Shown: positions 4,104 through 57,747 of the stretch, piece after piece
How the letters are laid out: the number at the start of each line of letters is the position of its first letter
How positions within the stretch are numbered: the first letter of the stretch is position 1
NCBI GenBank assembly: GCA_964627525.1
Contig: CAZVIA010000005.1
Location: 6,078 to 70,077, forward strand
Direction of reading: 5' to 3'
Source of the DNA: an uncultured Gammaproteobacteria bacterium
Lineage (GTDB): Bacteria > Patescibacteriota > Patescibacteriia > Magasanikbacterales > JBBTQS01
DNA length: 64,000 nucleotides
The notes under the pieces: generated by a model
Databases searched by the model: none
What the model was told of the DNA's origin: nothing
The model's input: the letters and a program-made list of their open reading frames with translations, nothing else
Program-made: the position numbers and the translations under genes

Positions 4104-5096
4104 ATGAGTACAAAAATGCAAAAAGTTGGAGCTTCTTGTTTTGTTGGTGGGATGCTTACACTCCTTTCACTGATCATCTTGGTTCCTAGCTTGCACTGGA
4201 TCGGCATGATCATTTGTGCAGTTGGTGGAGCCTTGTTTGGTTACATGTTCCATGATTTCAAAGCTGTTCTCAGAGCGATTCCGATTGCTTGGCACTATGC
4301 TGTTACTCAGCTTCACAAAGATGCATTCAGCGTGATCTTGTTTGCGATCTGTGTTGTTCCACACTTCGCATACTTGGGAATCCAATGGCTAGCAAGCAAG
4401 CCTCGACCTCGGTGGATGATTCACTCATTTGCTGGGTGTGTACTAATGTTGCTGTTTTTCTTTTACGACAGTGATTATGAAAGAAGTTATCTGTCTCTTA
4501 CAGGTAGTGCATTCCTAGTTTGGCTTGTTTCATCTATTGTCTGGTGGATATTCCTTGATTTCTTCATTGTGGGTGTCCTCTTGTTTGGGGTGACAGACGA
4601 TATGCTTGGTGATTCAGTTAACAGCTACTGGGAGAGAAAGGCAAATATCGACCTGTCTGATGTGGGGGAATTTACTTTTGAGATCTTTGGTGAAATCAAG
4701 TGGAAACATGCTTTGCAACTTTATGCAGTAGCACTGCTGAACATTGTGTTTGTGCAGTTACACCCAATATGTGCATTCATCTACTTTGTGGGTTGTGCTC
4801 TGTGGATAATCACCAAGCTTGGTTTCAGCTTCGCCTGGAAACTATTTGATCTGATTCACTCAAACGAGCGGATTGTGGTTGCAGTAGACACTCCGCTTGG
4901 TGCATTTCTCACGTACGGTTTGATTCGGGCTTTTGCTGGAGATCCAATCTTGATGCAACCGTGGATTCAACTCTTACTCTGCTTTGCTGGCGGTCTTGCT
5001 TCTGCTGGCTTGGGCATGCTCAACTACAAGCTCATGCAAAACATCCACTGGATCAAGAACTGGATTAGAGACATGGAATTCAACTTCACAGACTAG
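4104..5096 (+). CDS. Hypothetical polytopic membrane protein (higher GC ~46%, strong RBS GGAGG)
   Basis: Multiple hydrophobic segments; AGAGGAGGTG 7 nt upstream of ATG; hairpin ATCTGCC-atcag-GGCAGAT in 5' leader (4050-4069). Confidence 0.55.
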   Translation: MSTKMQKVGASCFVGGMLTLLSLIILVPSLHWIGMIICAVGGALFGYMFHDFKAVLRAIPIAWHYAVTQLHKDAFSVILFAICVVPHFAYLGIQWLASKPRPRWMIHSFAGCVLMLLFFFYDSDYERSYLSLTGSAFLVWLVSSIVWWIFLDFFIVGVLLFGVTDDMLGDSVNSYWERKANIDLSDVGEFTFEIFGEIKWKHALQLYAVALLNIVFVQLHPICAFIYFVGCALWIITKLGFSFAWKLFDLIHSNERIVVAVDTPLGAFLTYGLIRAFAGDPILMQPWIQLLLCFAGGLASAGLGMLNYKLMQNIHWIKNWIRDMEFNFTD

Positions 5097-11473: not shown

Positions 11474-11628
11474 AAATTCATTATATAAAAAAAATCAGCA
11501 GAGCACTAGGTGGGATAAGTGTCTGCTGATCAGAAAGTTTTGAAGATAGGATTTTAAGGTGGGGTTTTTGGGGCTTGGAATGACAGCAAAGCTGTCACCC
11601 CAAGCCCCGGAGAGTTGAGTAACTAGAT

Positions 11629-13491
11629 CTAGTAACCAACCCAGAAGCGACCACTACAGCCGCTCGCGTTGTTATCCACCAAGGTGATGGACACCAACTG
11701 GTTGTCTACCCACACGACCCACTTCACTCCGGTCGAGTAACCGTCCGGGGAAGAATCGCACCAGTCCTTGTACGGCGTACCGTACTCAGTCTGATACTTC
11801 ACGTTGAAAAAGAACCATCCTCCATGCGGCAGCTTGAAGCCACCTTCTGGGGAAGTGAATGCTCCGCCATTGCCAGCATCCCAGGTGTACCACTCCTGCC
11901 AATCCCAGTGATAGTCACCAGGCGGCGGGTTGGTGCAACCAGTTGCAGACTTTCCGTCCAAGGTCAGGGTCCCGTTTTCACAGAACCAACCCTGGAGCCC
12001 AGCATGGCTCAAACCGAACGTGATGGGCCACTTGACCCAAACGTCCGCGAAATCGTCAATCTGCGGACCAACCACACATGTACCATCCTGACACACGAAC
12101 CCGTCCGAACAATCGTCGTCCGTGTTGCAGCAGAACGGCTTGGTGCTGAATTGGCAGAAACCAGTCATGACATTGCACATGTCCGTGGTACAGGGGTTGT
12201 TGTCCTCGCACACCTTGGAGGTGTAAAAGCACTGCCCGTTCACGCACGTGTCCACTGTACAAGCGTTGGCATCATTGCAGTTCATCAGATCACAAGGATC
12301 GTCCGAAACGCACTGACCCGTAGCCGAATCACAGGAGTAACCAGCACCGCAAACCTTGGGAGACTGATAGCAAGTACCATTTGCCGAGCACGAACCGATC
12401 GTGCAAGGATCTCCATCGTTGCAATGCGTGGGATTGTAGCACTCGCTGCAAAGCCCTTCCACGCAGTACGGTGTATTACCACCACACAACCCGCAAGAAC
12501 CACCACAACCATCAGTACCACACTCTTCTCCAGAACAGTTAGGGACGCAAGGCAGCGGCGAAGGAACAACACACTCGTTGTCCACGCACACCAACCCAGT
12601 GTCGCAATTGTAATCGTACAAGCAACACCCTAGCACCCCAGCGTAAGTGCACCCATTTACAGGGTTACACGTATCTGATGTACATGGGTTGTCATCATTG
12701 CAGTCAAGCCCACTTTCACCAGGTTGGCAAGCCATACCCTCGCAATGGTCACCCTCAGTGCATAGATCGTTATCAGTACACAAGGTTCCAGGCTCTGCTG
12801 CAACGTAACTGCAGCCATAGCCATTGACACAAGTATCCACAGTACAAACGTTGTTGTCAGCGCACGACTTCGGAGAGCCGCTTACGCACTGATCAGCGCT
12901 GCATGTGTCATTTTCGGTACAAGTATCTCCATCATCACATGCCTGACCATAACGCGGGACATTCTCACACAATCCATCGTCTTTGCAAACGTTGAATGTG
13001 CACTGATTTCCATCGTCACAATCAATGTGAAACTCGCACAGCGGATCCTGGCACGCGCCTTCAACGCAAACCATCTCGCCAACACAAGCACCACAAGAGC
13101 CACCGCAACTGTCTGTACCACATACCTTGTCCAGGCAATTCGGCATACAGCAAGTGTTTTCATAACACACCTCGCCGCCAGTACAGTCTGGGTTACTCTG
13201 GCACACGCCAACGGGTCCATCATCCGGAGTTCCCTCGTCAGGAGTGCCTTCATCTGGGCTACCCACATCCGGGTTTCCAGTGTCCAGCTTCCCAACCTCG
13301 GGTTGTCCAGTGTCCGGAGTTCCAACGTCCGGGGCACTCACGTCTGCTACCGGCTGAGGCATATCCTCTTCCGGCATATTCGGGGTGCACCCAGAGCAGG
13401 TAAAAATCGCACACACAACGGACACAAGCAGAGCTGTCAACAGAACTACCAACGTCCGCATGAACTTACGATCCCTTTGGGTAAAGATCAT
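11629..13491 (-). CDS. Secreted cysteine-rich repeat protein (high GC ~57%); over 15 repeats of C-x-D-x-N-x-C-T-x-D-x-C; Pro/Asp-rich linker; C-terminal beta-rich domain
   Basis: Signal peptide MIFTQRDRKFMRTLVVLLTALLVSVVC; strong RBS AGGGAG 6 nt before ATG; repeats such as CDDGNQCTFNVC, CNDDNPCTSDTC. Confidence 0.7.
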   Translation of the reverse strand: MIFTQRDRKFMRTLVVLLTALLVSVVCAIFTCSGCTPNMPEEDMPQPVADVSAPDVGTPDTGQPEVGKLDTGNPDVGSPDEGTPDEGTPDDGPVGVCQSNPDCTGGEVCYENTCCMPNCLDKVCGTDSCGGSCGACVGEMVCVEGACQDPLCEFHIDCDDGNQCTFNVCKDDGLCENVPRYGQACDDGDTCTENDTCSADQCVSGSPKSCADNNVCTVDTCVNGYGCSYVAAEPGTLCTDNDLCTEGDHCEGMACQPGESGLDCNDDNPCTSDTCNPVNGCTYAGVLGCCLYDYNCDTGLVCVDNECVVPSPLPCVPNCSGEECGTDGCGGSCGLCGGNTPYCVEGLCSECYNPTHCNDGDPCTIGSCSANGTCYQSPKVCGAGYSCDSATGQCVSDDPCDLMNCNDANACTVDTCVNGQCFYTSKVCEDNNPCTTDMCNVMTGFCQFSTKPFCCNTDDDCSDGFVCQDGTCVVGPQIDDFADVWVKWPITFGLSHAGLQGWFCENGTLTLDGKSATGCTNPPPGDYHWDWQEWYTWDAGNGGAFTSPEGGFKLPHGGWFFFNVKYQTEYGTPYKDWCDSSPDGYSTGVKWVVWVDNQLVSITLVDNNASGCSGRFWVGY

Positions 13492-13800
13492 AACAATCTC
13501 CCTGTTGGCCCCCTAGGGCCGGTAAAGCCCGTTAAGGCGTCGAATTCTGGTCTTCTTCAGTGGAACTGTGTTCCAAACGTCCGGCTCAAGAGCGTCACTA
13601 TTGAAGGAGGGCACAATAGCGAACCCGAACCGAACGATTACAACACAGTTCATCAAGCAATTTATGTGTTTTTTTACACAAATCCTGCTTGTTAAAGGAG
13701 AGGTTATACTAGCATAATTACATGTTTTTGTCAAGCTATTTTTGTATAAGCAAGTTTATTTACTTTTTTTTGTAAATTTACAACTTATTTAACCTCAAAA

Positions 13801-13886
13801 TTTCCCTAAAATTACAAAACCCATAGCAAAGTTAATTACTACGGGCTCTGTGTTGTTAAAAGCGCTTAAGTGGCGCTCCATTGAAA
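13801..13886 (-). terminator. Conserved two-hairpin plus U-tract 3' module (copy 1) just after the stop of 13887..14990
   Basis: Hairpins agcgc-ttaagtg-gcgct and cccgtag-N12-ctatggg, then U-run (minus-strand sense). Homologous to 15241..15324 with compensatory stem changes. Confidence 0.65.
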
Positions 13887-14990
13887 CTAGAAGTTGATAA
13901 TGCCTCGGAGTTGCACTGGCACTACACCATGCCACTTTCCAAGACTGTCACGAATCCATTCGCCACCAACAGCGACCTTAGCTCCATACCTGACCAGCGA
14001 CTTTTCGTCACCGTTCAAATACGAAACACCAGCAAGAAAACCTGGACCTCGACCATCCCAAGACAACACACCCCCAGTCGAAGCCTGAGTAATTGTGCCC
14101 TCCAAGGTCAACTGAATGGCTGGGTGCACTGTGAAATCCACCCCAAAGGCAGCGCCCCAGAGATGACTGAAGTCTGCATCTTCATCAGACCCAGGCAAAT
14201 CCATTGGCTGACCAATGGCAGTGTTCAGCTCTGCATGCATTCCCAAAACCTCATTGCGGAGATTCCAGTTGTACCGCAGTGCCAACTCACCAACCAAGTG
14301 GGTGGGAAGTTCGTCGCTGTTCAAACCAGGCCTGAACCGCAAACCATATTCCAGAGACAATCCATTCCAACGATGGTTAGCCTTACCAGTAAGTCCGCCA
14401 CCACTATCACGCCCTTCTGGACCATGCACATCGTTCTCCAAACGAGAAATCCGCTGCCCTTGAAAAAGCAACGACTGGTCTTGCGATATATCTCTGGTAT
14501 CTTGGATTCCCTGCGCCTTGCAAGTACGCCAGTCCAGCTCCAAGTACAAGTACTGAAACTCGGAAACCTGCCTTGCTACTTGCGGCTCGTTACAAGAAAA
14601 CCTATGGAAATCTTGGTCAGCGGAAAACCGATCAGTGAAACTCATCTGTGCAGCTGCACACCTACGACGAGCAAGTACATACTGTGGGTTGTCCTGATAC
14701 ATACCAGGATTCACTGACACAGTAGCACGAACCTTCAAACAAGGATGACTTGCAACTACAGCGAAAAGCCGATCGAAAAGCATGGTCGCCTGTGCGCGCG
14801 GTTGCACCATACACTCAAGAGTACCATCAAACCAGTTCTCCATTGGCGCCAAATCCACACCAGAGTATGGACCTATGATTTGTTTCACTGGCTCAATCGG
14901 CAACTTGTCAACGTAAGGCGGTGGCACCTGAGCATTTGCAAGACCCGCCACAAACATGATCATCACGAAACATGCGAGTTGCTTTGACAT
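13887..14990 (-). CDS. Secreted protein with outer-membrane beta-barrel-like features (signal peptide, alternating hydrophobic strands, C-terminal ...GIINF), high GC
   Basis: Start taken at MSKQLACFVMIMFVAGLANAQ (RBS AAGGGGAAAG); C-terminal Phe and beta-strand patterns such as YGAKVAVGGEW. Confidence 0.5.
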   Translation of the reverse strand: MSKQLACFVMIMFVAGLANAQVPPPYVDKLPIEPVKQIIGPYSGVDLAPMENWFDGTLECMVQPRAQATMLFDRLFAVVASHPCLKVRATVSVNPGMYQDNPQYVLARRRCAAAQMSFTDRFSADQDFHRFSCNEPQVARQVSEFQYLYLELDWRTCKAQGIQDTRDISQDQSLLFQGQRISRLENDVHGPEGRDSGGGLTGKANHRWNGLSLEYGLRFRPGLNSDELPTHLVGELALRYNWNLRNEVLGMHAELNTAIGQPMDLPGSDEDADFSHLWGAAFGVDFTVHPAIQLTLEGTITQASTGGVLSWDGRGPGFLAGVSYLNGDEKSLVRYGAKVAVGGEWIRDSLGKWHGVVPVQLRGIINF

Positions 14991-15240
14991 CTTTTCTTTC
15001 CCCTTTGCCCAGCGGGCATTTTTAGCGCCCACTGAGCGCTTTTTCCGAACAATTGCTTATCTGCTAGTTAATCAACCAACAGATTGCAACAACTAAAGCC
15101 ATTAGCATTAATTGTTGCAACCTCTTAGCTAAAATTAGCCCAAAAATCAATCTTTTTTCTGAAGACTTAGATTAGCACAAATAAACTAATCTGTCAAGTA
15201 CTTAATACAATATATTTTTATAATCTAGAAAAACCTAATT

Positions 15241-15324
15241 TTTGCCTAAAATTACAAAACCCGCAGTAAAGTTAATTACTACGGGTCCTGTGTTGTTGAG
15301 AGCGTTTTCACGCTCTACTAGAAA
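15241..15324 (-). terminator. Conserved two-hairpin plus U-tract 3' module (copy 2) after the stop of 15325..16137
   Basis: gagagcg-ttttca-cgctct and cccgtag-N12-ctgcggg; covariation relative to copy 1 keeps pairing. Confidence 0.65.
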
Positions 15325-16137
15325 CTAGAAGTACCGACCAGACCGAGCCGAAGTACGCGACGGCGGCGGATTACGACGACCTTGCGGAGGTCGCGGTGCT
15401 GGTCGCACGATCCGACGGCGCATCGTATTGACACGACGCGGCGAGGAACCCATCACGAATCCAGCATCTGCGGCAGGCAACGAACTCGGACGATCTTCAC
15501 GACGACTACGAGTAGCACGAGGCACTGAACGATCCTCACGGCGAGCAAATCGCTGCAACACCTTACGCTCCTGAGGAGCATAGTAAGAAGTCGCGGGAGC
15601 TGCAGCACAAGGCTTCAACCAATTCAACCGATGCACTGCCTCCAAGCAATACTCCATCGCAGCCTCACGCTGGGAATGTTCGTGCTCAACTCGATCCACA
15701 GCGTTCCACTTCTCCTCCAGGACGTGACGCTGTAGAGTTAGGTCACCATTGGTGTTTCCAACAGACCTTTGCAGACCTTCCAACTCCAAGATGTTCAGAG
15801 CGGAAGCCAACTTATACCAGGTCCAGGAACCCTTCTTGGTCTCGAACAACTGGTCCACGGCATCTCGCAAAACGAGCTTGTCCGGAACCTTGTTTCCATT
15901 CAAGTCCAACTTGGGAACCTCATTCACATGATGACGTGCCGTAGCACTGCCACCAAGGGCACATTTCGTTACTGCCGAAATGGCATCACGAACCGGCTGC
16001 ATTCGACGCAACTCCGCGGCAACAGCTCGCTTTTCCTCAGCCAACTTGGCTGCCTGACCCCCCTTTCGGTTATGGGCCAATGCCGTCATCGGAATCGCGA
16101 ACAGAACGATGAGAATGAGTGCGATACTTCGCTTCAT
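15325..16137 (-). CDS. Secreted protein with Arg/Pro-rich disordered C-terminal tail ending ...GRYF (high GC)
   Basis: Start at MKRSIALILIVLFAIPMTALA (RBS GGAGGGAAGG); signal peptide; tail RRRIVRPAPRPPQGRRNPPPSR. Confidence 0.5.
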   Translation of the reverse strand: MKRSIALILIVLFAIPMTALAHNRKGGQAAKLAEEKRAVAAELRRMQPVRDAISAVTKCALGGSATARHHVNEVPKLDLNGNKVPDKLVLRDAVDQLFETKKGSWTWYKLASALNILELEGLQRSVGNTNGDLTLQRHVLEEKWNAVDRVEHEHSQREAAMEYCLEAVHRLNWLKPCAAAPATSYYAPQERKVLQRFARREDRSVPRATRSRREDRPSSLPAADAGFVMGSSPRRVNTMRRRIVRPAPRPPQGRRNPPPSRTSARSGRYF

Positions 16138-16446
16138 CTTCCTTCCCTCCAAGGAGTTTTTAAACCCCTTTGCTGTGATTCTGAAAAGGGCATACGAGAA
16201 TCACCACGCGGTGACCACGACGGCACAACGGGTGATTCCCGTGCTGCCCCTTCCATGGCTAGTTTCCAAATGTGCCGTAATTAGGGCTTAATTTACGAGA
16301 AATTTAACCCTAATTACCACACACCCAGCAAGAAGATAACTTAGCACAAATCTTAAATTTTGTCAAGCCCTAAAATCACTTACTAAAAAAACAATAAAAA
16401 AAGGCACAAAAATTGCCTAAAATTAGATAAAATAATGAATTTTTAT

Positions 16447-17085
16447 TTAACCAAAATAAACCTGATCTTTAGAAAGTTTTTTCTCTTTTTTAAATAAAAC
16501 ACGAAGACTTGCCAAAATTAAACCAAACAAAAACCCAACAATAGCATTGGCAATTAAATTTGGTTTTACTGGAAAATTAGAAACAACTGCTTTTTCAACA
16601 GCTTTAAACTCAACTTGAGGACCAACATACTCAACCCCATTTTCAACCAAAGTATTAATTACTGCATCTGAAATAATTTCAGCTTGGCGCCCATCAACAC
16701 TATATGCAGTTACTCTTAACAAACCAGTTCCTGGACTAACTTGCGGATCAATGGTTTGTTTCCAATACTTACGACGTTTATTTTCATCTTTTGGAAAAAC
16801 TTTTGAAACAATTCTTAAATCACTTTCCAAAACCTGACTTAAAAAAGAACTTGTCTCAACAATCTGTGATAAGTTTTCCCCTACACGTTCTGCAGATTTA
16901 ATTACTGTGTATGGATCTACTCCAAAACCTTGACGTGGAATAATTAATAAACTTCCAGTTGCGCTGTACTTCAAAGGAAAAAGCAAACTCACAATTATTG
17001 CAATCACACCAACTACCACACCTATTCCAATTAAAAATTTTGTGCGCTTAAGTAATTGTAAAATGTATGAATTTTGTTCAGACAT
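16447..17085 (-). CDS. Wzz/YveK-like polysaccharide chain-length determinant (N- and C-terminal TM)
   Basis: TM at ~17-37 and ~170-195 with periplasmic domain between; glycan cluster context. Confidence 0.45.
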   Translation of the reverse strand: MSEQNSYILQLLKRTKFLIGIGVVVGVIAIIVSLLFPLKYSATGSLLIIPRQGFGVDPYTVIKSAERVGENLSQIVETSSFLSQVLESDLRIVSKVFPKDENKRRKYWKQTIDPQVSPGTGLLRVTAYSVDGRQAEIISDAVINTLVENGVEYVGPQVEFKAVEKAVVSNFPVKPNLIANAIVGFLFGLILASLRVLFKKEKKLSKDQVYFG

Positions 17086-21140: not shown

Positions 21141-21520
21141 GGGGATGACAGGCATCGATGGGAGGTTCGTGTAATTTTCTTGCGTATCAAGTTTGTATGT
21201 TCTTGTAAAAAATATTCAAACGATTACGTGCAAACGTTTTCAACAAAGTGAAAAACGCTTTCCGCGTTCCTTCACTTTCAATGGTAGCAGCTTAAAAGCA
21301 GCAACCCATCGCGTCCTGACGTCTCTAGGGGCAACGCGGTGTTATAATGAGACTTAGGTTTGCGAGACTTCTCCACTTGTAAACTGAAATAATTGGAGAT
21401 AGACATTACAAGACTTTGATTGTTTGTTGCTTGTAGTGCGACCCCTTCAAACAATCTACATACGTAGATAAGTTTATTGCATACTCACCAGACGCGGGTT
21501 CGAATCCCGCCATCTCCACA
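21141..21520 (+). ncRNA. ssrA: tmRNA (SsrA); predicted tag ANVFNKVKNAFRVPSLSMVAA
   Basis: 5' GGGGATGACAGGCATCGATGGGAGGTTCG and 3' GACGCGGGTTCGAATCCCGCCATCTCCA(CA) match the tmRNA tRNA-like-domain consensus; in-frame tag ends GTA GCA GCT TAA. Confidence 0.85.
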
Positions 21521-21602
21521 TTTTTAAATCACAAACGACCAGAGGTTTTCTTCTGGTCGTTCGTTGGTTGGAATGCTTGGTGTTCACACCTGTTGCCAAG
21601 CG

Positions 21603-25176: not shown

Positions 25177-26130
25177 TTAGTCTATTGGTGTGGAGCTATT
25201 CAAGCCACCCCACATGCCCAACAATTCATTCTTGTGTCTGTAGCGTTTGTTTTGCCACGCTTGAAACTGCCTTTCATCCATAAGTGGTATGTCTTCAAAA
25301 CACAACTCTTCTACTTCCACGTAAAAGGTTTTGTCTAGAATTTTTTCCAAATCCCAGATTGTGTGACACAAGATCCCAAAACCCCAAGTCACATCAAAGA
25401 CACGGACACCACTCATTCCACCACAAAACAAAGTGTGCAAAATCGTGAGCTCTGAACCACTTCGCGGCTGACGCGTGAACTTGAGCCAATGAGCATGAAG
25501 TGAAAACTTCTTGTGATCACTGGCCATGCTTTTTGGTTTTGGCCGACCAGTGTCTGGATGCAAGATCATTGTGGTGCCATGAGTAAACACCAATGGAAAT
25601 CTCTGCTGTACTTTTTGCAAAGATTCCGCACGCTTGTCCCTATTAATAGAAATCATCGTACCTAGTACAGACAAAAATCCACCAATCGGTGAAAACTGAT
25701 TTTTGGTTGCCATCACAGCGCCAACTCGCCTGTTACTTAGGTAATTAGCAAAAGGACTGTTTACGCCACGCATTAGCGCAACTTCATTCAAACTGTGAGC
25801 ATACAATCCATAAGCTGGACCAATCTCACCAGTAGTTGGATGATTTGTTGTAAGAAAAACCCTGTCACCAGGATCAATACTCACCTTTTTCAGGATTTTG
25901 ATCTTTGTGCCCAAAATCTTTATCCAACAATGCCTAGTTGCCACACCAGTCCACAACGTTGGAATTCTGTTAAAAGGATTGAACTGAAACTTTTTGTCCA
26001 AAATCCTTCCTTGCAAAACCCAGTAATACACCATGCCAACTACCCATGGTATAAAACCAAGAAACACGAAGTAAAAACAGAACCAGAACACAGCCTTGCA
26101 AATTCGCCACTTGTTTCTGACTTTCATCAC
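25177..26130 (-). CDS. Membrane protein, possible lysophospholipid acyltransferase (PlsC/LPLAT)-like; low confidence
   Basis: N-terminal TM helices; NHPTTGE (H-x4-acidic) reminiscent of LPLAT block I. Confidence 0.35.
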   Translation of the reverse strand: MMKVRNKWRICKAVFWFCFYFVFLGFIPWVVGMVYYWVLQGRILDKKFQFNPFNRIPTLWTGVATRHCWIKILGTKIKILKKVSIDPGDRVFLTTNHPTTGEIGPAYGLYAHSLNEVALMRGVNSPFANYLSNRRVGAVMATKNQFSPIGGFLSVLGTMISINRDKRAESLQKVQQRFPLVFTHGTTMILHPDTGRPKPKSMASDHKKFSLHAHWLKFTRQPRSGSELTILHTLFCGGMSGVRVFDVTWGFGILCHTIWDLEKILDKTFYVEVEELCFEDIPLMDERQFQAWQNKRYRHKNELLGMWGGLNSSTPID

Positions 26131-28258: not shown

Positions 28259-28432
28259 ATTTTTCGGTTGGCTTTGCCAACCTCAAAAAGAATCCTCCTG
28301 CGCCTCGGAAGACATAAAATAAATTTTAGTCTTCGCTCACCTTAGTCAGCTTCCGAACCCCTGGGTTCTCGCCCCAACCAATCCCATATTCAAAAAGAAA
28401 TACCCCACTTGTGGAGTATTTATTTTCGAGTG

Positions 28433-28506
28433 CGGATCGGACGGGACTCGAACCCGCGACCTCCGCCGTGACAGGGCGGCATTCTAACCAGCTGAACTAC
28501 CGATCC
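28433..28506 (-). tRNA. tRNA-Asp (anticodon GTC)
   Basis: rc gives GGATCGGTAGTTCAGCTGGTTAGAATGCCGCCCTGTCACGGCGGAGGTCGCGGGTTCGAGTCCCGTCCGATCCG; cloverleaf with loop CUGUCAC; near-identical to canonical bacterial tRNA-Asp. Confidence 0.85.
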
Positions 28507-28668: not shown

Positions 28669-30039
28669 TCAGGAAGGGCAACCAGTGTCGGGATCAGCGG
28701 GGGCTGAGTCACACGCGTCGCCGCATGCGTCTCCGTCCTCGTTCTCCTGACCATCGTTGGCGTTCAGCGGGCAGTTATCTTCTGCGTCGCCCACACCATC
28801 GTTGTCATCGTCACTGTCGCACTCGTCTCCGTAATTGTCACCGTCCGTGTCCACCTGATCCGGGTTGTCTACACCCGGGCAGTTGTCCATGGGCACGCCG
28901 TCGCCATCCATATCAGGCAGGCACACCCCGGTCGGGAGATCGTCACTCACGTAACATTCCTCATCCACGGCGCAAACCGCGGTGGGATCACAGCTCATTC
29001 CGCACACCGGATCTGAACCACACACGCCGGAACAGTTGGGAACGCACTCTACGCACGCGCCATCCTGACAGGACATGTCGCTGGCACCGAACTCACAAGG
29101 AGTCCCATCGTCTACCACAGAGGCAGCCGTGCACAAGCCAGTGGCCGGATCACAGACATCACCCATGGTACAGACCTCGTTGTCCTCACAGTCAACGGCC
29201 GTGCCAGAGCACGTGCCACCACTGCAGACATCTTCGGTCGTACACAAGTTGTCGTCGACGCAGGACTGACCGTCCTGGGCCGCGGAATCATTCTCACAGC
29301 TACCGTCGGTCTCGTCACACGAGTCCGCGGTGCAGGTATTCGAATCATCGCAATCCACTGCCGTACCGACCTGACAAGCTCCGTCCACACACACGTCACC
29401 GGTGGTGCACAGGTTGCCATCGTCGCAGGCGATATCCAAGTTGGTGCTCACGCAACCAGTCCCAACGACACACTCGTCACTGGTACAGACCTCTCCGTCA
29501 TCGCACGAAGCGTTGTTCGGAGCGTTGGCACAACCAGTCAAAGGATCACAGGAATCCACGGTGCAGGCGAAGGTGTCGTCACAGTCCGTGGCACTGGTAT
29601 CTGTCCCAGCGCACGAGCTGTCCGCACACACGTCAGTGGTGGTACACGCATTGCTGTCATCGCACGAAGCGACGTTAGCCGTGTTCACACACTGATAATT
29701 CGTACACACATCGTCGGTACAGACGTTGGTGTCGTCACACTGCGTATCCATGATACAGGCAATTGCTTCCTCACAACCTTCCGCATCGGAATCCTTGATG
29801 TACGCGCAGTATGCCTGCGTGTCACCGTCCTTCATGTAACAGAAGTATCCGGTCAAAGCGCACGGATCTGCGGGCTCTCCCGCGCAATCCGCGTCAACCG
29901 TACATTCGGTCAAACCACTCACCGTGGTTACGAACTGATCCAATGCCGGAGCATCGGTCATGTTCCCACAACCGTAGATGAGCGGAGAAACGATCAGTAC
30001 GGACAGAACGAACAGAGCGGTCTTTGACTGCTGCATCAT
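28669..30039 (-). CDS. Secreted Cys-rich repeat protein (C-x-D-x-N-x-C-T-x-D-x-C repeats) with C-terminal thrombospondin type-3 Ca-binding repeats; high GC
   Basis: Start at [24 protein letters not shown] (RBS GAGGAG); repeats [26 protein letters not shown]; TSP3: [33 protein letters not shown]. Confidence 0.7.
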
Positions 30040-30398
30040 GGGAAAAACTCCTCTTCCCACACCCAGTTTACACCAGGTGCTTTTGCTATTAGGCGTGGTT
30101 TTAAGATGATCTTGCCTAAGGATCATCCGAGCTGCGATCCGCAGTCTTTTTGCTTAAATTTTTTAAGCAAAAAAACCACAGATCAGAGTATTTTTAATAT
30201 ACACTCTCAAAAAGAGCAGGTCTTAAGTTAACATAATTATTATATTTTGTCAAGTCTTTTTTAGAAAAAAATTTTAAAACAAAAAAATTAGCTAAATTTA
30301 GCTAAAAAATAGCTGTCAAAAAGTTATCCACAAAAAAAATTTGACTAGAATTTTAAATTTTTTATAATTGGTTCTAGTCTTGCTCTGCAAGATAGAAA

Positions 30399-36459: not shown

Positions 36460-36563
36460 ATTTTTTGTTCAACAAAATTATTTTTGAATACATTTAGTGT
36501 TTCTATATATAAGTTTACAAGAGGATTAAAAAAAACACAATAGCTGTGGAAATAAACACAAAG

Positions 36564-36592
36564 TTGACAAATTTTGCCAAAAATGATATAAA
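36564..36592 (+). promoter_or_regulatory. Consensus sigma-70 promoter TTGACA-N17-TATAAA for the 36630 gene
   Basis: Hexamers at 36564-36569 and 36587-36592; 17-nt spacer counted. Confidence 0.6.
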
Positions 36593-36629
36593 AAGATGTC
36601 GCAAACAACCGCGGCAAAGGGGAGGGACT

Positions 36630-37382
36630 ATGCCTCATATAAGCGAAGACCAAATTGCTAGGTTGCGTGAGTTGGATTCAAAGTTTGAGCATGGGTTGGG
36701 AGATAACTTTGAAGCATGGCTAGATTCCATGGATCAGCTACAAGCTTTGGACATAGACGATCCAAGCCAAACTTCTGAAGCACCAAGTGATATTCGTGAA
36801 AAACAAGCTCAAGTGCTTTGGGATAAGGGTTTTGGTCGTGAGCAAGGTTATGCTGAATTCAAGGGTTACCTTGCAACCATTCCTCCACAACCAGAACGTC
36901 CAACTGATCTCCCAGACTACTTGGACAAGCTAATCCTCGTAGATGCACGAATTGCTCGTACTCAAGATAAGGATGGTGAGTACCAGTTCGGAGGACTTGT
37001 CAAAGTCTGTGAACTGCTTAGAGTCAAATTCACTGGAAACAACTCCATATTTGAACCATTCAATCCAGAACAGGTCAAAAAACAAGACGTGTATTGGATG
37101 TGGTGCCAAGATGGTAAACGTAATCTAGGTAAAACTGTCCAAACCTGCCGTAAAGAGTTCGCTGAAAATGAAATCGGACTTGATGCAATGGAAGGTCTAG
37201 CATTGTTTGCTCAACACAGAAAGATTCCAGAAGATCACTACATGGACCTGCCAAGTTCGGTCCATTGTGGCAATCGCAAGTGCTGCGCGAACCTCGACTT
37301 GTGGGACGACGTTCCGGAGTTGGACTTGGACTGGGATGGCGATGCGGATTCCAGGTTTGGTTCTGCGTCGCGTGGGGAGTAA
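36630..37382 (+). CDS. Hypothetical acidic protein (no recognisable domain); plus-strand gene between ftsZ and ftsA; RBS AAGGGGAGGG
   Basis: Start MPHISEDQ 7 nt after the RBS; GC ~45%; flanked by its own promoter and terminator. Confidence 0.55.
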   Translation: MPHISEDQIARLRELDSKFEHGLGDNFEAWLDSMDQLQALDIDDPSQTSEAPSDIREKQAQVLWDKGFGREQGYAEFKGYLATIPPQPERPTDLPDYLDKLILVDARIARTQDKDGEYQFGGLVKVCELLRVKFTGNNSIFEPFNPEQVKKQDVYWMWCQDGKRNLGKTVQTCRKEFAENEIGLDAMEGLALFAQHRKIPEDHYMDLPSSVHCGNRKCCANLDLWDDVPELDLDWDGDADSRFGSASRGE

Positions 37383-40602: not shown

Positions 40603-41397
40603 TTAGTTAGTAGGCACTTTTAATAACTTACCAGCACCTTTTGGATTATAACCTGCATTTATTTCACTACCATCTTCATATGTATCACCATCTGTATCTG
40701 GATTTAGAGGATCAGTTCCCCAAATCTCCAACTCTTCTTTATCATTTAAACCATCACCATCTGTATCAGGATTATTCCAATCTGTTCCATATTGAATTTC
40801 AACATCATCAGTTATGCCATCAAAATCTGAATCTAGCAAAGCAGAAGGTTCTGGCTCTGGGATAACAATTGTTTCGTCTACTTCTGGAATAATTGTATTG
40901 TCTTTTGGTTCTGGCTCTACAATAGGTGCATCTTCAATTATTAAAGAATCAGTATCATTAATATCTTCTTGTTCCTCTTCCTCATCTTCAATATCTTCTA
41001 TATTTGCTTCAGGAGGAACAATAGTTTCAACAACATCCACATCATCACCAGACATCAAAGAATTAAAAACCCAATATCCACCAGCAATCACTAAAACAGC
41101 AACTACAACTACCAAACCAATCATAAAAATTTTACTTTGTGTCATTGGTGCTTTTAACTCATAAATACTAACACCTTCTCCAGGCATTCCAGTATCTTTT
41201 GGTGTATCTGCTGTAACTGGTTTTAATTTTCCAGTTTCAACAGCTGATGGACCATAATCAACAGATTTATATTTTACTTCTTCTGGAGCTGGCACACCTG
41301 CCGGATCTGGCGCACCTTCTGTTGTTGGTGGCTGATTTGGATCTGGCTGTTGCGTTGGCTGTGGTGACTGCCCTGGTTGTTGTGGATCATCAAACAT
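40603..41397 (-). CDS. Membrane protein with bacterial TSP3 repeats (DSDFDGITDD...NPDTDGDGLNDKEE...NPDTDGDTYEDGSE)
   Basis: Pro/Gln-rich N-terminus, one TM, acidic linker, TSP3_bac-type repeats. Confidence 0.5.
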   Translation of the reverse strand: MFDDPQQPGQSPQPTQQPDPNQPPTTEGAPDPAGVPAPEEVKYKSVDYGPSAVETGKLKPVTADTPKDTGMPGEGVSIYELKAPMTQSKIFMIGLVVVVAVLVIAGGYWVFNSLMSGDDVDVVETIVPPEANIEDIEDEEEEQEDINDTDSLIIEDAPIVEPEPKDNTIIPEVDETIVIPEPEPSALLDSDFDGITDDVEIQYGTDWNNPDTDGDGLNDKEELEIWGTDPLNPDTDGDTYEDGSEINAGYNPKGAGKLLKVPTN

Positions 41398-41423: not shown

Positions 41424-44400
41424 TTAAATACTACAATTTATTTTGTCAAAACTACAATCTGGCGCACATTGCAAATCTCCTCCTGTAAATCCAAAATCCG
41501 TACACTGCACACCGCTCATATCCTCATTATCACAAGATTCTTGAGCTTGCCTAACTCCATCACCACAACTTCCACCAGTTAATGTAATTTTTTTACAAGT
41601 ATTACTACAATATATGCAACTACTATTATACAGTGCTGAGCAAATATTACCATTGCTCACTCCATTATCACACTCCTCACCTATTTCAGGTTGCAAAGAA
41701 GCATCCCCACAAATCTTTTCTGGAACTGGTGGAGTTGGTGGTGGAGGTGCATATACAACTTCTGCATTAGGATCTGTTTCAGAACATTCCCAATCAGTAC
41801 TTTTTTCTATTTTACAATCAGATGTACAACCCTTAATCAAATATGCTTTATCTTTTCCAGGTGCACACCACTCTATCACATTTATATTTAAAGTTTCTGA
41901 AATTATAGGATCCCCATCACATTCTTCACCACCATTTATCAATCTATCACCACAATATGGTCCAAAAGCCTTACAATCCCAGTTACATGATTCTGACTTA
42001 GACGAAGCATGAACTGTTTGCACTTGTTCCTTTAGACAAGGCTCTGGATCACTTGTTTTTATTCCAGCTGGTAAATCTTCTACTGGCATTACAAAAGAAA
42101 CTACCTTATCATCTCCTGCAGAATATACACCAACAATTACCATTTGTTTCCCATCAACTGTTTTATAATAAATATCAACTACTTTTTCACAATCCACACT
42201 TTCAGACCCAACAGAACAAGTTCTGTTTGTAAATGCACACCTATTACCCCACACATCACATACCTCACCTTGATTTTCTTGTATAATTCCATCACCACAA
42301 GCACCATAGGCACTAATTTCACTTAAGCAATCTAAACTACAATTATTATAAGCCCCATTAAACGAAGCATTATCACAAACCTCACCACCATTTAGAACAC
42401 CATCTCCACAAAAACCAGTTGGCTGACAATTAACTTGTGACTCTGGCAAATATTTACAATCATTAGGACATTGAATTACAAAAGTACCTGGATATTCCAC
42501 GCTAGAAGCATCACTATACACACAACTTCCATAACTTGCTTTCATTCCAATTTCACACTGCTCTCCCATACTTGGATTTAAAATTCCATCACCACAAACA
42601 CCACCAGCACCAATAAATGTACTTGTTATATCTGTGCATGTTTCAACAAGATCAAATTCAGATAAATCAATACCTTTCCAATCATTTGGTCCACTACTTT
42701 CTAATTCAGCTTTTAATTTATATTCTAAACCACCTTCAGTTGATTGATAAGCATAAACATGAGAACGTTTCATGCATTGATATTGTTGTGAACCTGAATT
42801 CCAACAATTTTCAGAATTAGCACCTGATTCAGCACAACCAATCCTAAATTCATTCAAAGGATCTAATGGCATTTCAATTCCCAAAACAGAACCAAGTTGT
42901 GCTTGCCATGAATCCCAAGCACTAACACTCATAGATGGAATATATGTACCTTGTTGCAACAAAGGTGCGTTTGTGTTTTGCATTTTATAAATTTCAACAG
43001 CTTGTTTAATTTTTTGCAAATCACTCAACCTCACCATGTCTCGTTGCATTTGTTTTTTAACAGACAAGCAATCAATATATTCTTCACTACCTGGAATAAT
43101 TTTTTCTTCAGCAGTTGGAGCTTCAGCTAGACACTCTAATTCTGAAGTACATTGAATTTCTGGTTGCAAAATATTGTAAGCTTTTTTAGATTCTTTTATT
43201 GACGCACAAACACCCTGATCCCACTCTTTATTCAAATTAACATTAAATTCTAGATTATCAATTAATTGTTTGTAAATAATTTTTGTTTCAGCAGATGCTG
43301 TGTCATTATGAGAAATAATATAAATATTTGTATACCTTTCATTAAATTTTCCTTTATCATTAGACCCAGGAGTCAATTTATGATTATTGTTTTCAGTTGC
43401 AACATTAACAGCACTAATATAAATTGTGGCACCATCAACAATAGCCTGGTAACCATCAATTTCAATTACTTCGGGATTACCAGGAAATCCTTGCTCATTG
43501 TACCAATCCATTGGAGACAAATGTTTTAGGTTTTTCTGAACTCTTACACCAATAGCATCTCCATTATCTTGGTTTTGCAAGAAAAATGCTTTTAATAAAT
43601 TTGGATCATCAGCAGTTGAAACAAGCTGACCCTTAGTTAGTCCTGGTAACAAATCTTGAGTTCCATTTCCTCTACAATACCAAGTGCTAAAATTGTGTGA
43701 ACTATCAATCAATGGGAACTGACTATTTTGATATTCAGGCCAAGGATTTTCACACATTGTGTTAGTTAATTCAGCAATACCATAATACTCATTTTCAACA
43801 GTTGAAGGATTAAAGAAAGTATCATGCGTAATTGTTGCTGTTGCACGCAAAATTGCACTACCTTTATTTGGTAAAGCACTTACTATAACAACATCACCAT
43901 CATCACTAACATTTTCAATTTGTGCAATAGTTTCATTACTTACTAACCAACTCCACTCCCACTCATAATCATTTGTTTGAATTAGTGGTTGTGCAACACC
44001 ATTAATCACTGTTTCTGCTATTGCAATAAAATTACCAGCACCTTCAATACCTGGCACAAAAAATACATATTTACCAGGTTCAACACTTACACGATCTATA
44101 TCACAAACCTCAAGACCTGTTGTAAACTGCCAACTTTTATCTTGGTGCATGCTAATACTTTTCTCATTTTTAATATCTTTTCCTAAATTAACATAATAAG
44201 TAGTATTTGCTTTCAAAACCTCTGTAGGAATTATAAACAACTTACTTCTATTAACCACCTTACCCTCAATTATTTCTTGTGCATCTGCTAACTGAATTTC
44301 AAAATCAACCACACCTTCACAATCAAATAATGCATAAGCTGGCTCTACATCAAGCATCTCACGCACAAAATTAACAACTGAAAGCCATGCGCGTCTATAC

Positions 44401-47400
44401 CAAGGATCATTTATATTTTTTGTAAATTTTTGAGTTACAGTTCCACCAGCTTTTGTACAAGCTTCTTCTGTATTAGTTTTAATATAAACAGAAACATTAT
44501 CAGTTAAACTATTAGGATAAATTTTTTCATTAAATTCTGCTGTCATCATTGTGTTCCTACACACACCAGATGAAATTGGTTTTTCAGAAATAACATTTGG
44601 ACGACCATAACAACACGCATCATTTCCAACACCCAATGTATTTACATCACCACATTGTGCATCTGAAGTAAATCCACACTGAATAACATATTTTCCTTCA
44701 GCATCAACACTACCTACTGCAAATGGCAAACTAGTTGAAGCTTTTACTTCAGCAGTACGTTTATTATCTACCACATCACCACCTTCTAACCCTGTTATAT
44801 ATTGGATATGATTACTTGCAGACACACCTACATATGCACCAGCTTTTTCACAACTTGAAGCTTCATCAAACTGTGTAGTACCATCACCACAAAATGAACC
44901 ACGTTGTGCAGATGATCCTTCTAACAAACATGTTGAACTACAACCATCTCCAGAAATTATATTTCCATCATCACATGACTCACCTTTTGCAATTTCAACT
45001 TCTCCATTACCACACCAATCTGCATCACCTTGTTGTTTAGGGCCACGACCTTCCATTACGCAAAACTCACTACAAGAATTTTCAAGATTATTTTTTACAA
45101 AACCATCACAATATAAATCTTCACCCGGCTCATTTATTCCATTACCACAAACAGCCACACCAACACATTGTGCATCTAAATCTTCTGATTTTAATTTATT
45201 ACAAGCAGTATAAGACGGTGGTGTACCTGTCCACAGACAACCACTACAATACATTCCATATTCTGGATCAGCATCATCACATTCTTCGCCAATACCCACA
45301 TCCTTATTTCCACATTCAGCAACTGTTGAATTAGAACCCAACCATGTACAAACCTCACTACAACCTTCTCCACCATCACAATCTTCACCACCCAGATCTG
45401 CCATATACTGGACTTCTCCATCACCACAAACTGAATTAGGTGAATCTGCGCCTTCATTTAAACAAATACTACTACAACCATCATCACTTCTAATATTTCC
45501 ATCATCACAATTTTCACCAGGTTCAAGCACTTTATTTCCACAAACACTAGTGCCTTTTGGCTGACTTCCTTTTGCTAAACAAGAATCAGTACAATAAGGA
45601 GATTCTTTAAGTGTTTTTATTTTGGATTCTTTTCCACCAACTAATTGTGCCACACTTGAAGGCAAAACACTCCATGACCAATCATAACTACCTGCATCTA
45701 ATAATTGACCTTCTGTTGGATTACAATTATCTACTGAACCACGAGCTTCCACTTCAAAACCTCTTACAATACCTGGTCCAGACACAACAGTTTCTACAGG
45801 TACTAAGCCAGCTTCGGAAATTTCACAATTTTGTGTATTATTTTTTGATTTAAAAACCCAACTAAAGTAACGTGAATTTTCACCCAAAGGATAACGACTT
45901 TCTTCAGGAATACTTGTAATTGGAATTCCAACACCTGATTTTGAAATCAAACCATTTTCACCTAACAAAACCAAAACTCTGTGATATTTATTAGGAGGCA
46001 AGGTATATCCATTTAAAATTATTTTATTTGTTACCCAATAATTTGGAACTTGCAATGTGTAAGGTAACTTAAGTGACTCTACTTCTTTGGTTAACAAACC
46101 ATTTTCATCTGTGTCAAACAAACATGATTCATTTTCACATTCTAACACCAAAATACTAGCTGCCTTAGCTGGATTAAAAGTACTACTATTTAATCTAATT
46201 GATTGTTTTTTAACTGGCTTATCAAACTCAATTCCAACTTGCGCATTTACACAAACTGCTGAACAGAAAGGATAATAACTAGAAATTTCAGAAGACTTTA
46301 CTTTTACACTTAGCTCACCTTTTCCAACCTTATCCTTCACAGATGCCAAAATTGTTGCAGGAGTATTTGCTGGAGTTTCAGCTTTTGCATCAACAACAAT
46401 TTCTGGATAAGTATCTTCAAATTTTTGACCTTCATACCCATCTAAATCATCATAAAATTCTACGTATTTATAATCTTCATCACTTACTTCCCATGTCCAT
46501 TGATAATAAGATGAATCTAAAACAACACAAGAATTTTCTGGCTTTGCTTCTGCTTTATATTCAACAATTATTTCCTCTCCATTTTCTAATGTTTCACTTA
46601 CCCAACCTAATGAACTTGCAGTATATCTATTTGGATTAACTTCTACTGATTCAACTTTACATAATTCTTTTGACTCACGAGTTTTAAATATATAACAATA
46701 TGATTCATTTCTTGCTACATCACAACTAGTATTAATTTCCATTGGAATACTATTTGTATTTTTCAAACCATTATTCAAACCAACTCTATACCATGTATCT
46801 GGATCAAAACCAATGTGATTCATACCACCTGCTGCACCAACTACTTTTAATATTGCTCCATCTTTAGTATCATCAAAAACATAAGTTTGTACAAGAGATC
46901 CCAACATTGGACTCAATGCTTCACATTCATGATCCACTTCTCCAGGAATCTCTTCACCATCTTCTCCTATTTGATCAACCTTACCTATACATTTTTGAAC
47001 ATAAAAATTTGAATTGCTAAACGTGTTAGCATCCATTTTTTGTGAAAACACAACATTTACAATTGCATTTTTACAAATCTCTTCACCACCAGCATGACCA
47101 ACCCAAGGCGAAGGACTTTCCATACCAGAACCACATTGTTGCATTACTTGAGGAGCTCCATAATCCACAAAAATCAAAGCATCATCAGTTATTTTTGTTT
47201 GTAAATGAGTTGCTGTTACAACTGCTGGCACAACTGAAACACTCCCAGTTTCTAATGCAGCCTCCTTGCTTTCACCAGTAACTTTCATGTGAGATTGACA
47301 ACTATTAGCTCCAACAACTTTTTTAGGAATTACAACTGATTCATTATCACTGCCCCAAGACATTGAGCTTCCAAACCCAAAACAATTATCATACAAAAAG

Positions 47401-50400: not shown

Positions 50401-51239
50401 TTATCCCCAGTTGTAAATGTCACACTACAAGTACTACCAAGTCCACATTTTAATTTTTTACCATCTTTTGATAACACTCCATTTTTTCCATCTTTTACAT
50501 CCACAACATATTGTGTGTTTCTATCAAGACAACCTGTTGCTTCAGCTGTACCACAGTCTTTTGCAGACTTCATTGCCACCATACTGTCATCTATATCATA
50601 ATCAACATCAATTGCTTTACTAGATCCTGTTTTACGCAAAATTATATTTTTTTCAACACTTTCAGAATCAACATCCATTGAAAAATTAATTTTTACGCTT
50701 ACATTATAAATAGGAACATTACCACTTGGTACAATACTTTGAACTGTAAAATTCTTTATTGAACCACCACCGCCAGTCCCACCTGTTCCTCCTCCACCTC
50801 CACCACTACTATCTGAATCACTTGAACTAAATTGAGTACCAGTTGCATCACCTAGTGAGCTTAAAACAAATTGCGTAATTGAAAATGACAAAATAATTAT
50901 CATCAATCCAATCAAACCATTTTTCAAAATCTTTTTAGCTAACAAAATCTTATCTTCATTTCCACCAGCAGTCATCCAAATAAATCCACCATACAAAACA
51001 ATCAAGATCGCCAAAATTCCCAAAAAACCAAGAACCACACGAACTATTTTTGCGATTGTAACTTTTATGTCCTGATCTCCTAATTGAGATGCTTCTTGAA
51101 AATCACCTAAACTTGTATCAATTTGTGCTAAAACTTCTCCAGCTCCAACAAATGCAAAAACAGCAAACACCAAAGCAAACACTATTAAAAAGTTTTTGTA
51201 TTTAGACTTTGATTTAAATTTTGAGAAAAATGATCTCAT
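41424..51239 (-). CDS. Giant (3271 aa) surface protein: VirB2/TrbC-like N-terminal double-TM hairpin, Gly-rich linker, Ig/IPT-TIG-like domains, about ten myxococcal-type Cys-rich repeats (CGDG...E.CDDGN...DGCS..C)
   Basis: N-terminus homologous to the 51242..53053 product; repeats such as [27 protein letters not shown] and [29 protein letters not shown]; IPT-like [11 protein letters not shown]. Confidence 0.75.
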   Translation of the reverse strand: [3271 protein letters not shown]

Positions 51240-56928: not shown

Positions 56929-57747
56929 CTACTTTTTTGGGTAAGGAATTGGGAAAACTCCTTTTAACTTCATGACGGCAGGTGAAGCAGTTTTTGCATT
57001 CACTTTTGCCATAAAGTTGTACTTTTTAAGTGATGTAAGTGCGCTCGGACTCATTTCAGAGTGATACTTGTTGATTAGCTCAGCTGTTGCACTGCCAACG
57101 AAATAGCAAAGTACATGGTTTGCGGCTTCAAGTGTGCGCTCCAGAATATCTGTACGGTAGTGCATAGATGTTTGATCTGACAATATGCAAGACAAGTCTT
57201 TTTCTTTGCTTTGCACTATTTGTTCCAGGACTTCTTCATCTACAAAGTTATGTGCTTCGTCGAGTCCGAGCGAACGATTTTCGCCGCCAACGATTTGCAA
57301 AAACTGCTTCACAAGGTATAAACCGAGTTCTCTTGCTACACCTGTACCCAAACTACGATAATCCAACTTGCAGAGGAGAAACTTTTGGCCGTCCTTTTTC
57401 ATTTCCTCAAAGTGGATTTCCTTCTGGAATTTTGCAATGTTTTCATCAAGTGTTCCGGTCACTGCTTCAAATATCGCAACTTTGTTAGCTTTGTCTGCTG
57501 GAATGTAAGATTGAACATCTTTGATAAGATCCCCGTAAGGATCAATCAACATGCCACCTCGACTGTTGTGGATGTCTGAAATTATTATGTCTTCAAGAGT
57601 GACGGATTTGCCTTGGCCGGAACGTCCAAATAAATGCAAAATTCCAGGACGTTCTTCTGGAGAAAGGCCAAAAGTTTCTCCGTTTTCTTGTGCACCGATT
57701 GGTGTTAACCCTTCCTTGATGATGTTTTCCATAGTGTTTGTGCTCAT
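56929..57747 (-). CDS. P-loop ATPase (HerA/AAA_10-like; Walker A GRSGQGKS, Walker B LGLDEAH)
   Basis: Motifs read directly; 272 aa, possibly a truncated or standalone domain. Confidence 0.55.
   Translation of the reverse strand: MSTNTMENIIKEGLTPIGAQENGETFGLSPEERPGILHLFGRSGQGKSVTLEDIIISDIHNSRGGMLIDPYGDLIKDVQSYIPADKANKVAIFEAVTGTLDENIAKFQKEIHFEEMKKDGQKFLLCKLDYRSLGTGVARELGLYLVKQFLQIVGGENRSLGLDEAHNFVDEEVLEQIVQSKEKDLSCILSDQTSMHYRTDILERTLEAANHVLCYFVGSATAELINKYHSEMSPSALTSLKKYNFMAKVNAKTASPAVMKLKGVFPIPYPKK

Follow-up and report, generated by a model that had tools for sequence, protein, structure and literature searches.

How do GC-rich genes for exported proteins come to lie within an AT-rich surface-glycan locus, and what might their products do there? 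The locus in question is carried on contig CAZVIA010000005.1, from which we analysed 64,000 nucleotides (positions 6,078 to 70,077 of the forward strand). We refer to this whole stretch as the window and number all coordinates from its first letter. A preliminary description of the window had drawn attention to three open reading frames (ORFs) between a Wzy-like and a 'Wzz-like' gene, and offered as explanation either horizontal acquisition, the donor being a high-GC diderm, or an assembly chimera. All three ORFs are indeed present on the minus strand as described (genes 1 to 3; Table 1). We consider it likely that this island is a real, multi-cassette horizontal acquisition from high-GC diderm bacteria that use Shine-Dalgarno (SD) sites, into a low-GC genome that is probably CPR (candidate phyla radiation) in type.

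Composition and codon usage of the island

Sliding-window composition showed GC climbing from ~0.30-0.35 to 0.50-0.59 across positions ~11600-16250, with dips inside the island to 0.34-0.38 at 13550-13850 and 15050-15350. The mean is 0.503 over 11480-16300, compared with 0.353 for the remaining window, and the genes themselves have GC contents of 0.54, 0.50 and 0.56 (genes 1, 2 and 3, respectively). The 55-60% GC originally reported is thus a fair value for the peaks and for two of the three genes; as an average it is a little high. Promoter zones between the genes are AT-rich (GC 0.26-0.35), in keeping with the earlier picture of GC-rich genes set in AT-rich spacers; that picture does not extend to genes 1 and 3 in the ~150 nt of 5' untranslated region (5'UTR) adjoining the start codon, where GC is 0.52.

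To compare codon usage we took 47 ORFs in the window, of which 41 served as the native reference and six had a GC content at third codon positions (GC3) of at least 0.44. GC3 was 0.57, 0.49 and 0.54 in genes 1, 2 and 3 and 0.233±0.063 in the native genes, giving z-scores of 4.1-5.4 for the island genes against the 41 native genes. The island is not unique in this respect. A fourth GC-rich gene, which the preliminary description did not mention, lies at 28669-30039 (gene 4); its GC3 of 0.65 is the highest in the window and takes the upper z-score to 6.7. GC at 4-fold degenerate sites was likewise raised, to 0.48, 0.37 and 0.42 in genes 1, 2 and 3 (0.37-0.66 with gene 4 included), compared with ~0.17 in native genes. 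Hence codon choice itself differs, as had been proposed, and amino-acid content alone is an insufficient explanation.

On one flank of the island, Pfam identified a Wzy_C (PF04932) protein and GT4 glycosyltransferases, and this part of the glycan-cluster assignment stood. The other flank encodes an HtrA-like protease and the 'Wzz-like' protein, which has two transmembrane segments; the latter had no Pfam match, leaving its label less secure.

Shine-Dalgarno sites as a second foreign signature

The preliminary description had also noted strong ribosome-binding sites on the three island genes and none on the flanking core genes. We computed the anti-SD duplex energy over the 22 nt upstream of each start codon in the window, and the values agreed with this observation: the island genes gave -7.8 to -9.8 kcal/mol (gene 1, -8.4), compared with ~0 for the Wzy, Wzz-like, HtrA-like and most other genes. 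Indeed, each of the six genes whose GC3 reaches 0.44 or more was preceded by a strong SD site (-7.8 to -13.3 kcal/mol), as against only two of the 41 others (Fisher P=2.6e-6). About 39 of the 41 low-GC3 genes had no SD site (energy ~0), ribosomal-protein and cell-division genes included; the energies for L20, L35, IF3, FtsZ and FtsA were all near zero. The resident genome largely does without SD sites, and their presence is a second foreign signature, independent of GC. Since native ribosomal-protein genes have neither high GC3 nor a strong SD site, high expression does not explain either feature. Where a genome lacks SD sites, such sites could thus be used as a composition-independent marker of foreign genes.

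The island in independent assemblies

Three contigs of 50-200 kb encode the 620-aa gene 1 protein. Over window positions 1629-23491, an ENA scaffold from a different assembly departs from the window at two of 21,863 bases; a JGI contig of 45 kb has a single mismatch over 3887-25032; and two JGI contigs that are shorter and come from other samples (L032 and L033) are identical to the window over the island. The island and both of its junctions are at least 99.99% identical in the ENA scaffold and three JGI metagenome assemblies, the retrieved matching contigs all representing one clonal population. Both shorter contigs end at 13228, a position inside gene 1 where a 15-nt unit is repeated in tandem, and not at a composition junction.

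Predicted transcription units

Sequence features suggest that each island gene forms its own transcription unit, with a promoter close to the sigma-70 consensus, a structured 5'UTR, an SD site and a terminator (Table 1); each product also begins with a Sec-type signal or a lipoprotein-like peptide. Perfect TTGACA -35 boxes with 17-nt spacers occur at 13734, 15197 and 16366, and the 5'UTRs, of ~150-200 nt, contain long hairpins with fold z-scores of -6.2 to -8.9. No known RNA family of the Rfam type was found in these long 5'UTRs at E values up to 1. Genes 2 and 3 are followed by copies of a 91-nt 3' module that are 78% identical (alignment z=28), each comprising, in order, a small GAGCG hairpin, an ACAAC linker, a 16-bp terminator stem and a U-tract, which after gene 2 is followed by TAATTTTAGG. 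The gene 1 terminator differs from this module. Searches for further copies of the 3'UTR/promoter module gave 24 matches in ~186,000 reference genomes, two in a metagenome collection and none in viral contigs; none of the matches was true, each proving to be a terminator of generic kind or coding sequence, in DNA of uniform composition.

Two short motifs recur in and around these units. The near-palindromic GCTAATTTTAGC (or AGCTAAATTTAGCTAATTTT) is present in the gene 2 5'UTR (15126-15137), upstream of the gene 4 promoter (~30290-30310) and at the end (2470-2486) of L006, the contig that carries the single relative of gene 2 (see below). TAATTTTAG has four copies in the island and three elsewhere in the window. 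Either motif may represent the site of a shared regulator.

Table 1. Positions of the genes and regulatory features discussed in the text
Feature	Position	Strand	Remarks
Gene 1	11629-13491	minus	620 aa, exported Cys-rich repeat protein; GC3 0.57
Gene 2	13887-14990	minus	367 aa from ATG; a GTG at 15032 gives 381 aa; exported
Gene 3	15325-16137	minus	270 aa; signal peptide, helical domain, Arg/Pro-rich tail ending ...GRYF
Gene 4	28669-30039	minus	456 aa, lipoprotein-like Cys-rich repeat protein; own terminator
'Wzz-like' gene	16447-17085	minus	label from size and two terminal transmembrane segments only
Gene 1 promoter	13706-13734	minus	sigma-70-type TTGACA-17-TAGTAT with TG extension
Gene 2 promoter	15169-15197	minus	TTGACA-17-TAATCT; related to gene 3 promoter (repeat family D6)
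Gene 3 promoter	16338-16366	minus	TTGACA-17-TAAGTT
Gene 4 promoter	30225-30253	minus	TTGACA
Gene 1 5'UTR hairpin (I1)	13555-13660	minus	fold -47.4 kcal/mol, z -6.5; 5'UTR ~200 nt
Gene 2 5'UTR hairpin (I4)	15070-15135	minus	fold -33 kcal/mol, z -8.9
Gene 3 5'UTR hairpin (I2)	16255-16335	minus	fold -31.7 kcal/mol, z -6.2
Gene 1 terminator hairpin (I5)	11570-11608	minus	18-bp stem; fold -35.5 kcal/mol, z -7.3
3'UTR module after gene 2	13796-13886	minus	small hairpin GAGCGC; fold z -5.5
3'UTR module after gene 3	15236-15324	minus	same two-hairpin design; fold z -7.5
15-nt tandem repeats (D2) in gene 1	13215-13347		encode PDxGxPDxG linker; assembly-fragile spot
tRNA-Asp	28432-28506		adjoins gene 4

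Genes 1 and 4 encode Cys-rich repeat proteins

The gene 1 product consists of an N-terminal hydrophobic segment ending ...CSGC, a linker of PDxG pentapeptides, repeats of the Dicty_CTDC type and a Trp-rich C-terminal domain, and is probably lipidated. It matches Pfam PF00526 (Dicty_CTDC) in six stretches with 46.1 bits, above the gathering score of 27. There are 692 homologs, 30-37% identical over the repeat region, and 11 of the 12 that carry a name are assigned to Myxococcota, Myxococcales, Polyangiaceae or 'Deltaproteobacteria', which bears out the earlier suggestion of a Cys-rich repeat protein with myxobacterial or deltaproteobacterial affinity. The two best matches lie on contigs of 0.50 and 0.71 GC, and in each case the composition of the gene is that of its flanks; the same agreement of gene and flank GC was seen across homolog contigs L002-L005. 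Because gene and flank composition agree, the best gene 1 homologs are compositionally native where they are found. The last ~155 residues of gene 1 make up an orphan Trp-rich domain that is unmatched among the 120 best homologs and received no Pfam or PDB assignment.

Gene 4 encodes repeats of the same type, 37% identical to those of gene 1, and its PF00526 score of 25.1 bits is just under the cutoff of 27. Its C-terminus contains TSP3-like, Asp-rich repeats. The gene is unlinked to the island, 12 kb away, and has the same overall cassette layout.

Genes 2 and 3 have a single relative

The translation of gene 3 reads as a secreted protein with an Arg/Pro tail ending GRYF, just as the preliminary description had it. 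An indexed search of 5.8 billion proteins returned only self-matches for genes 2 and 3. Exhaustive HMMER searching of 1.84 billion representative proteins found one relative of gene 2, P0123 (29% identity, E 2e-12), encoded on the 2.5-kb Logan contig L006, where the ORFs have a GC content of 0.69 and a GC3 of 0.88. Directly upstream of P0123 lies an ORF distantly homologous to gene 3 (24% identity over ~200 aa, E 7e-5); its product shares the helical domain and, like gene 3, has a tail rich in Arg and Pro with a final Phe. Since homologous neighbours occur in the same order on L006, the gene 3-gene 2 arrangement is a conserved two-gene module. Judged by sequence comparison, the pair would constitute a previously unseen two-protein family, with two members among ~15 billion proteins. 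Neither gene 2, its separate halves, P0123 nor gene 3 received an OmpA-like or any other Pfam or PDB assignment.

Gene 2 and P0123 are identical at 83 residues; the codons for these have a third-position GC of 0.42 in the window and 0.84 on L006, as partial drift toward an AT-rich host would produce. The resemblance between the two loci extends to non-coding DNA. L006 carries a TTGACA-17-TATGGT promoter, a 5'UTR of ~230 nt, AAGGAGG and a two-hairpin 3'UTR after both genes, and its intergenic region falls to 0.42 GC. A terminator arm matches that of the window at 21 of 26 nt (z 4-5.7), and the 12-mer GCTAATTTTAGC is common to both (z 5.1). We prefer the interpretation that the genes came, together with these non-coding parts, from a donor lineage having such a layout. 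The AT-rich intergenic DNA of L006, and its resemblance to the window cassettes, weaken the contig as proof of a high-GC donor genome, and we do not use it as such.

Gene 2 as a candidate outer-membrane beta-barrel

Gene 2 had been described as resembling a diderm outer-membrane beta-barrel. By inspection of the translation it has a signal peptide, MSKQLACFVMIMFVAGLANA/QV, which is conserved in P0123, and the two proteins have in common four conserved Cys in the N-terminal half. Their C-termini, ...LRGIINF in gene 2 and ...LLVGANF in P0123, retain an invariant terminal N-F. In each protein the C-terminal half contains some eight segments of beta-amphipathic pattern, and the number of beta-amphipathic windows above threshold was 51 for gene 2, compared with 18.8±8.4 for shuffled sequences, and 48 for P0123, compared with 18.1±7.9. 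AlphaFold2, given a three-sequence alignment, modelled a beta-alpha-beta-alpha-beta-beta domain followed by a long helix and eight or nine long antiparallel strands at residues 201-366. The mean predicted local distance difference test score (pLDDT) of this model was 45, and that of the single-sequence model 35. Gene 2 matched no Pfam, NCBIfam or PDB profile, even at E values up to 10. Within the window we saw no gene for BamA, Lpt or Lol.

We therefore regard gene 2 as a likely but unproven candidate for an outer-membrane-type beta-barrel. The signal peptide, the ...GIINF terminus and the amphipathic pattern on which the earlier claim was built all speak for it, whereas the lack of a match to any outer-membrane protein (OMP) family speaks against, and the barrel-like model is of low confidence. 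If the assignment is correct, the gene 3-gene 2 pair might constitute a small, new barrel system of the outer membrane.

Proposed insertion site

No integrase or transposase gene flanks the island, and searches of PHROGs and PADLOC gave no matches. A 16-nt direct repeat, AAAACTTTCT..GATCAG, brackets it at 11523-11541 and 16462-16480 (shuffle P=0.018). One copy lies in the 3' end of the Wzz-like ORF, the other ~50 nt ahead of where Wzy starts. Followed in the Wzz frame, that downstream copy reads on as KLSDQQTLIPPSALLIFFI, with a stop 8 nt before the Wzy ATG. It may be a relic of the original Wzz-like 3' end, in which case the unsplit end would have read ...KKLSDQQTLIPPSALLIFFI and then a stop, directly before Wzy. 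That the island split the end of the Wzz-like gene fits the tight spacing of native genes, although we regard this as suggestive only. As a candidate attachment (att) site the repeat was set aside, its significance being marginal.

Origin of the island

A horizontal origin is supported by three lines of evidence, namely that codon usage differs, that the SD sites are foreign and that homologs are compositionally native elsewhere, in mid- and high-GC contexts; the proposal of acquisition from a high-GC diderm thus holds. The direction of transfer is indicated by the window genes being outliers while their homologs are at equilibrium in their own contigs. The preliminary description had singled out CPR homologs with the same GC skew as the result that would speak for a native gene family; none was found. 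We envisage that the Cys-rich repeat genes came from a Myxococcota-type source and the gene 3-gene 2 pair from an unsampled high-GC lineage. The DNA would have brought along its own 5'UTRs, SD sites and terminators when it entered the surface-glycan locus, a variable region, between the Wzz-like gene and Wzy, and would since have drifted part-way to host composition. Its genes would add exported envelope proteins that remodel the cell surface, namely an adhesin or lipoprotein built of disulfide-rich repeats, a small protein of beta-barrel type whose N-terminal domain is soluble, and a helical partner with a basic tail.

Several points weigh against this interpretation. There is no close donor (the best identities are 24-37%), and both direction and source are read from composition. 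The island has no integrase, transposase or significant att-like repeat, and its promoter zones are as AT-rich as the host. No close relative of the host lacking the island was retrieved, so that insertion is deduced rather than directly seen. L006, a contig of only 2.5 kb, has an AT-rich TTGACA promoter zone and short motifs in common with the window and, instead of belonging to a high-GC donor genome, might itself be a cassette within a related genome of low GC. Finally, the placement of the host in the CPR is no more than plausible.

Three other explanations were weighed. If GC-rich reads of another organism had been joined to a low-GC contig during assembly or binning, sharp composition boundaries would be expected, and these are seen; two short JGI contigs also stop inside gene 1. 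However, those breaks sit at the internal repeat D2 and not at a junction, and the same 21-kb arrangement recurs with at most two mismatches in ENA and JGI assemblies of different samples and assemblers. Moreover, GC-rich ORFs and AT-rich spacers are interleaved three times, and gene 4, 12 kb off on the same contig, is equally anomalous. The chimera offered as an alternative by the preliminary description is excluded by the recurrence of the island and its junctions in at least four independent assemblies, and we give it a negligible likelihood. Delivery by a mobile element, with the genes as cargo of a phage, an integrative element, a plasmid or an integron-like cassette array in place of direct recombination of donor DNA, would accord with the modular cassettes and the duplicated 91-nt 3' module, with the position of gene 4 beside tRNA-Asp and with the marginal direct repeat around the island. 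It appears improbable in view of the missing PHROGs and PADLOC matches, the lack of any match to the module pattern in viral contigs and the absence of an integrase or transposase beside the island. The integron cassette idea in particular was rejected, since each cassette has its own promoter, unlike integron cassettes, and inspection revealed no attC-like RYYYAAC/GTTRRRY core sites and no integrase.

The remaining explanation is a native family of GC-rich cassettes, in which the lineage itself would keep high-GC, SD-bearing genes for exported proteins, for reasons such as mRNA stability or high translation, and pass them on vertically or exchange them among relatives only, the conserved promoter and terminator modules being co-inherited. 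The uniform cassette layout of four to six window genes would fit such a family, as would the lack of a close donor and the shared layout of L006, with its AT-rich TTGACA zone (0.42 GC), long 5'UTR, AAGGAGG, two-hairpin 3'UTR and GCTAATTTTAGC. Yet the highly expressed native L20, L35, IF3 and FtsZ genes have low GC3 and no strong SD site, and the Cys-rich homologs occur on Myxococcota-type contigs of uniform mid or high GC. The non-coding likeness to L006 is short (the 21 of 26 nt noted above), no more copies of the module were found in the reference genomes and metagenome collection, and the spread of GC3 from 0.44 to 0.65 is that expected for separate or partly ameliorated acquisitions. We consider a native family unlikely, and favour horizontal acquisition from high-GC diderm bacteria.

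The host and other genes of the window

Two adjacent proteins of 3271 aa (41424-51239, minus strand) and 603 aa (51242-53053, minus strand) start with a PF18895 T4SS_pilin domain, followed by the Ig-like domains Big_5, TIG and Big_7. PF18895/VirB2-like pilins have been found in 1,948 CPR assemblies (bioRxiv 10.1101/2025.01.22.634366). These pilin-headed giant surface proteins, which are of a kind reported in CPR, together with the low GC, the lack of SD sites and a homing HNH endonuclease, are consistent with a CPR, and none of them is diagnostic; a host of the CPR/Patescibacteria type is plausible. There is no rRNA in the window. A TSP3_bac repeat protein (40603-41397) adjoins the giant proteins. 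The HNH homing endonuclease is free-standing and has HNH_repeat domains (58027-58677, minus strand). The window also encodes LexA, HisRS, signal peptidase I and restriction-modification genes, one of which specifies a fused, type I/IIG-like protein with HSDR_N, N6_Mtase and Methylase_S domains (60614-63127, minus strand). A standard one-piece tmRNA (21141-21521, plus strand; 113.7 bits) adjoins smpB.

Orphan genes of intermediate GC3 (0.39-0.48) are located at 4104-5096 (plus strand), 25177-26130 (minus strand), 36546-37382 (plus strand) and 56929-57747 (minus strand). For the first three there was no Pfam, PHROGs or PADLOC match, and for the last a Pfam scan gave only a weak, sub-threshold match to AAA_22. 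The genes at 4104-5096 and 25177-26130 have very strong SD sites (~-13 kcal/mol), and the latter has its own TTGACA promoter, 5' hairpin and terminator. These orphans may be older or differently sourced acquisitions.

What the island means depends on its host. If this is a low-GC diderm, the island is a routine genomic island. If it is a CPR bacterium, the locus would be a clean, reproducibly assembled case of a reduced epibiont importing diderm envelope genes into a glycan locus and keeping them functional, and imported envelope genes could hint at the identity of the partner organism. One bold extension, to which we attach a low probability, is that a monoderm-like CPR epibiont captured Myxococcota-like envelope genes from a diderm, possibly its own host, and kept the barrel with its partner and the repeat lipoproteins intact, with individual promoters and SD-driven translation. 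As such an epibiont has no outer membrane, the barrel would work extracellularly, and might insert in the outer membrane of the host organism as a conduit or anchor, with the repeat proteins serving as adhesins that mimic host surface proteins.

Comparison with known systems

Small OMPs of the OmpA type combine a barrel with a soluble domain, and are substrates of the beta-barrel assembly machinery (BAM), with a C-terminal aromatic beta-signal. Gene 2 has no sequence match to these proteins and, compared with OmpA, its domain order is reversed, the soluble domain being N-terminal. It also differs from established OMP systems in that its presumed host type has neither an outer membrane nor BAM. 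Genes 1 and 4, by comparison, resemble the Cys-rich proteins of Myxococcota, which have PF00526 arrays and are often lipoproteins, both in their CxDxNxCTxDxC-type repeats and in the CVPNCSG..CG.DGCGGSCG motif. Unlike these, they lie in a low-GC genome, and gene 1 has an orphan Trp-rich end.

Compositionally atypical islands often sit in surface-polysaccharide loci, and an island of this sort in a surface-glycan locus is of a well-known kind. Less ordinary are the monocistronic cassettes, the SD contrast, the near-orphan gene 3-gene 2 module and a possible barrel without an outer membrane. The likeness to the 'alien' islands of the Lawrence-Ochman type lies in the atypical GC, codon usage and translation-initiation signals, in homologs from distant taxa, in the variable cell-surface cluster and in the exported or surface cargo. 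In contrast to typical islands of that type, no mobility genes, tRNA or significant att repeat are present at the island itself, which comprises three monocistronic units with AT-rich spacers and not one GC-rich block. It differs too in its recipient: in a genome without SD sites, foreign ones stand out as an unusually clean marker.

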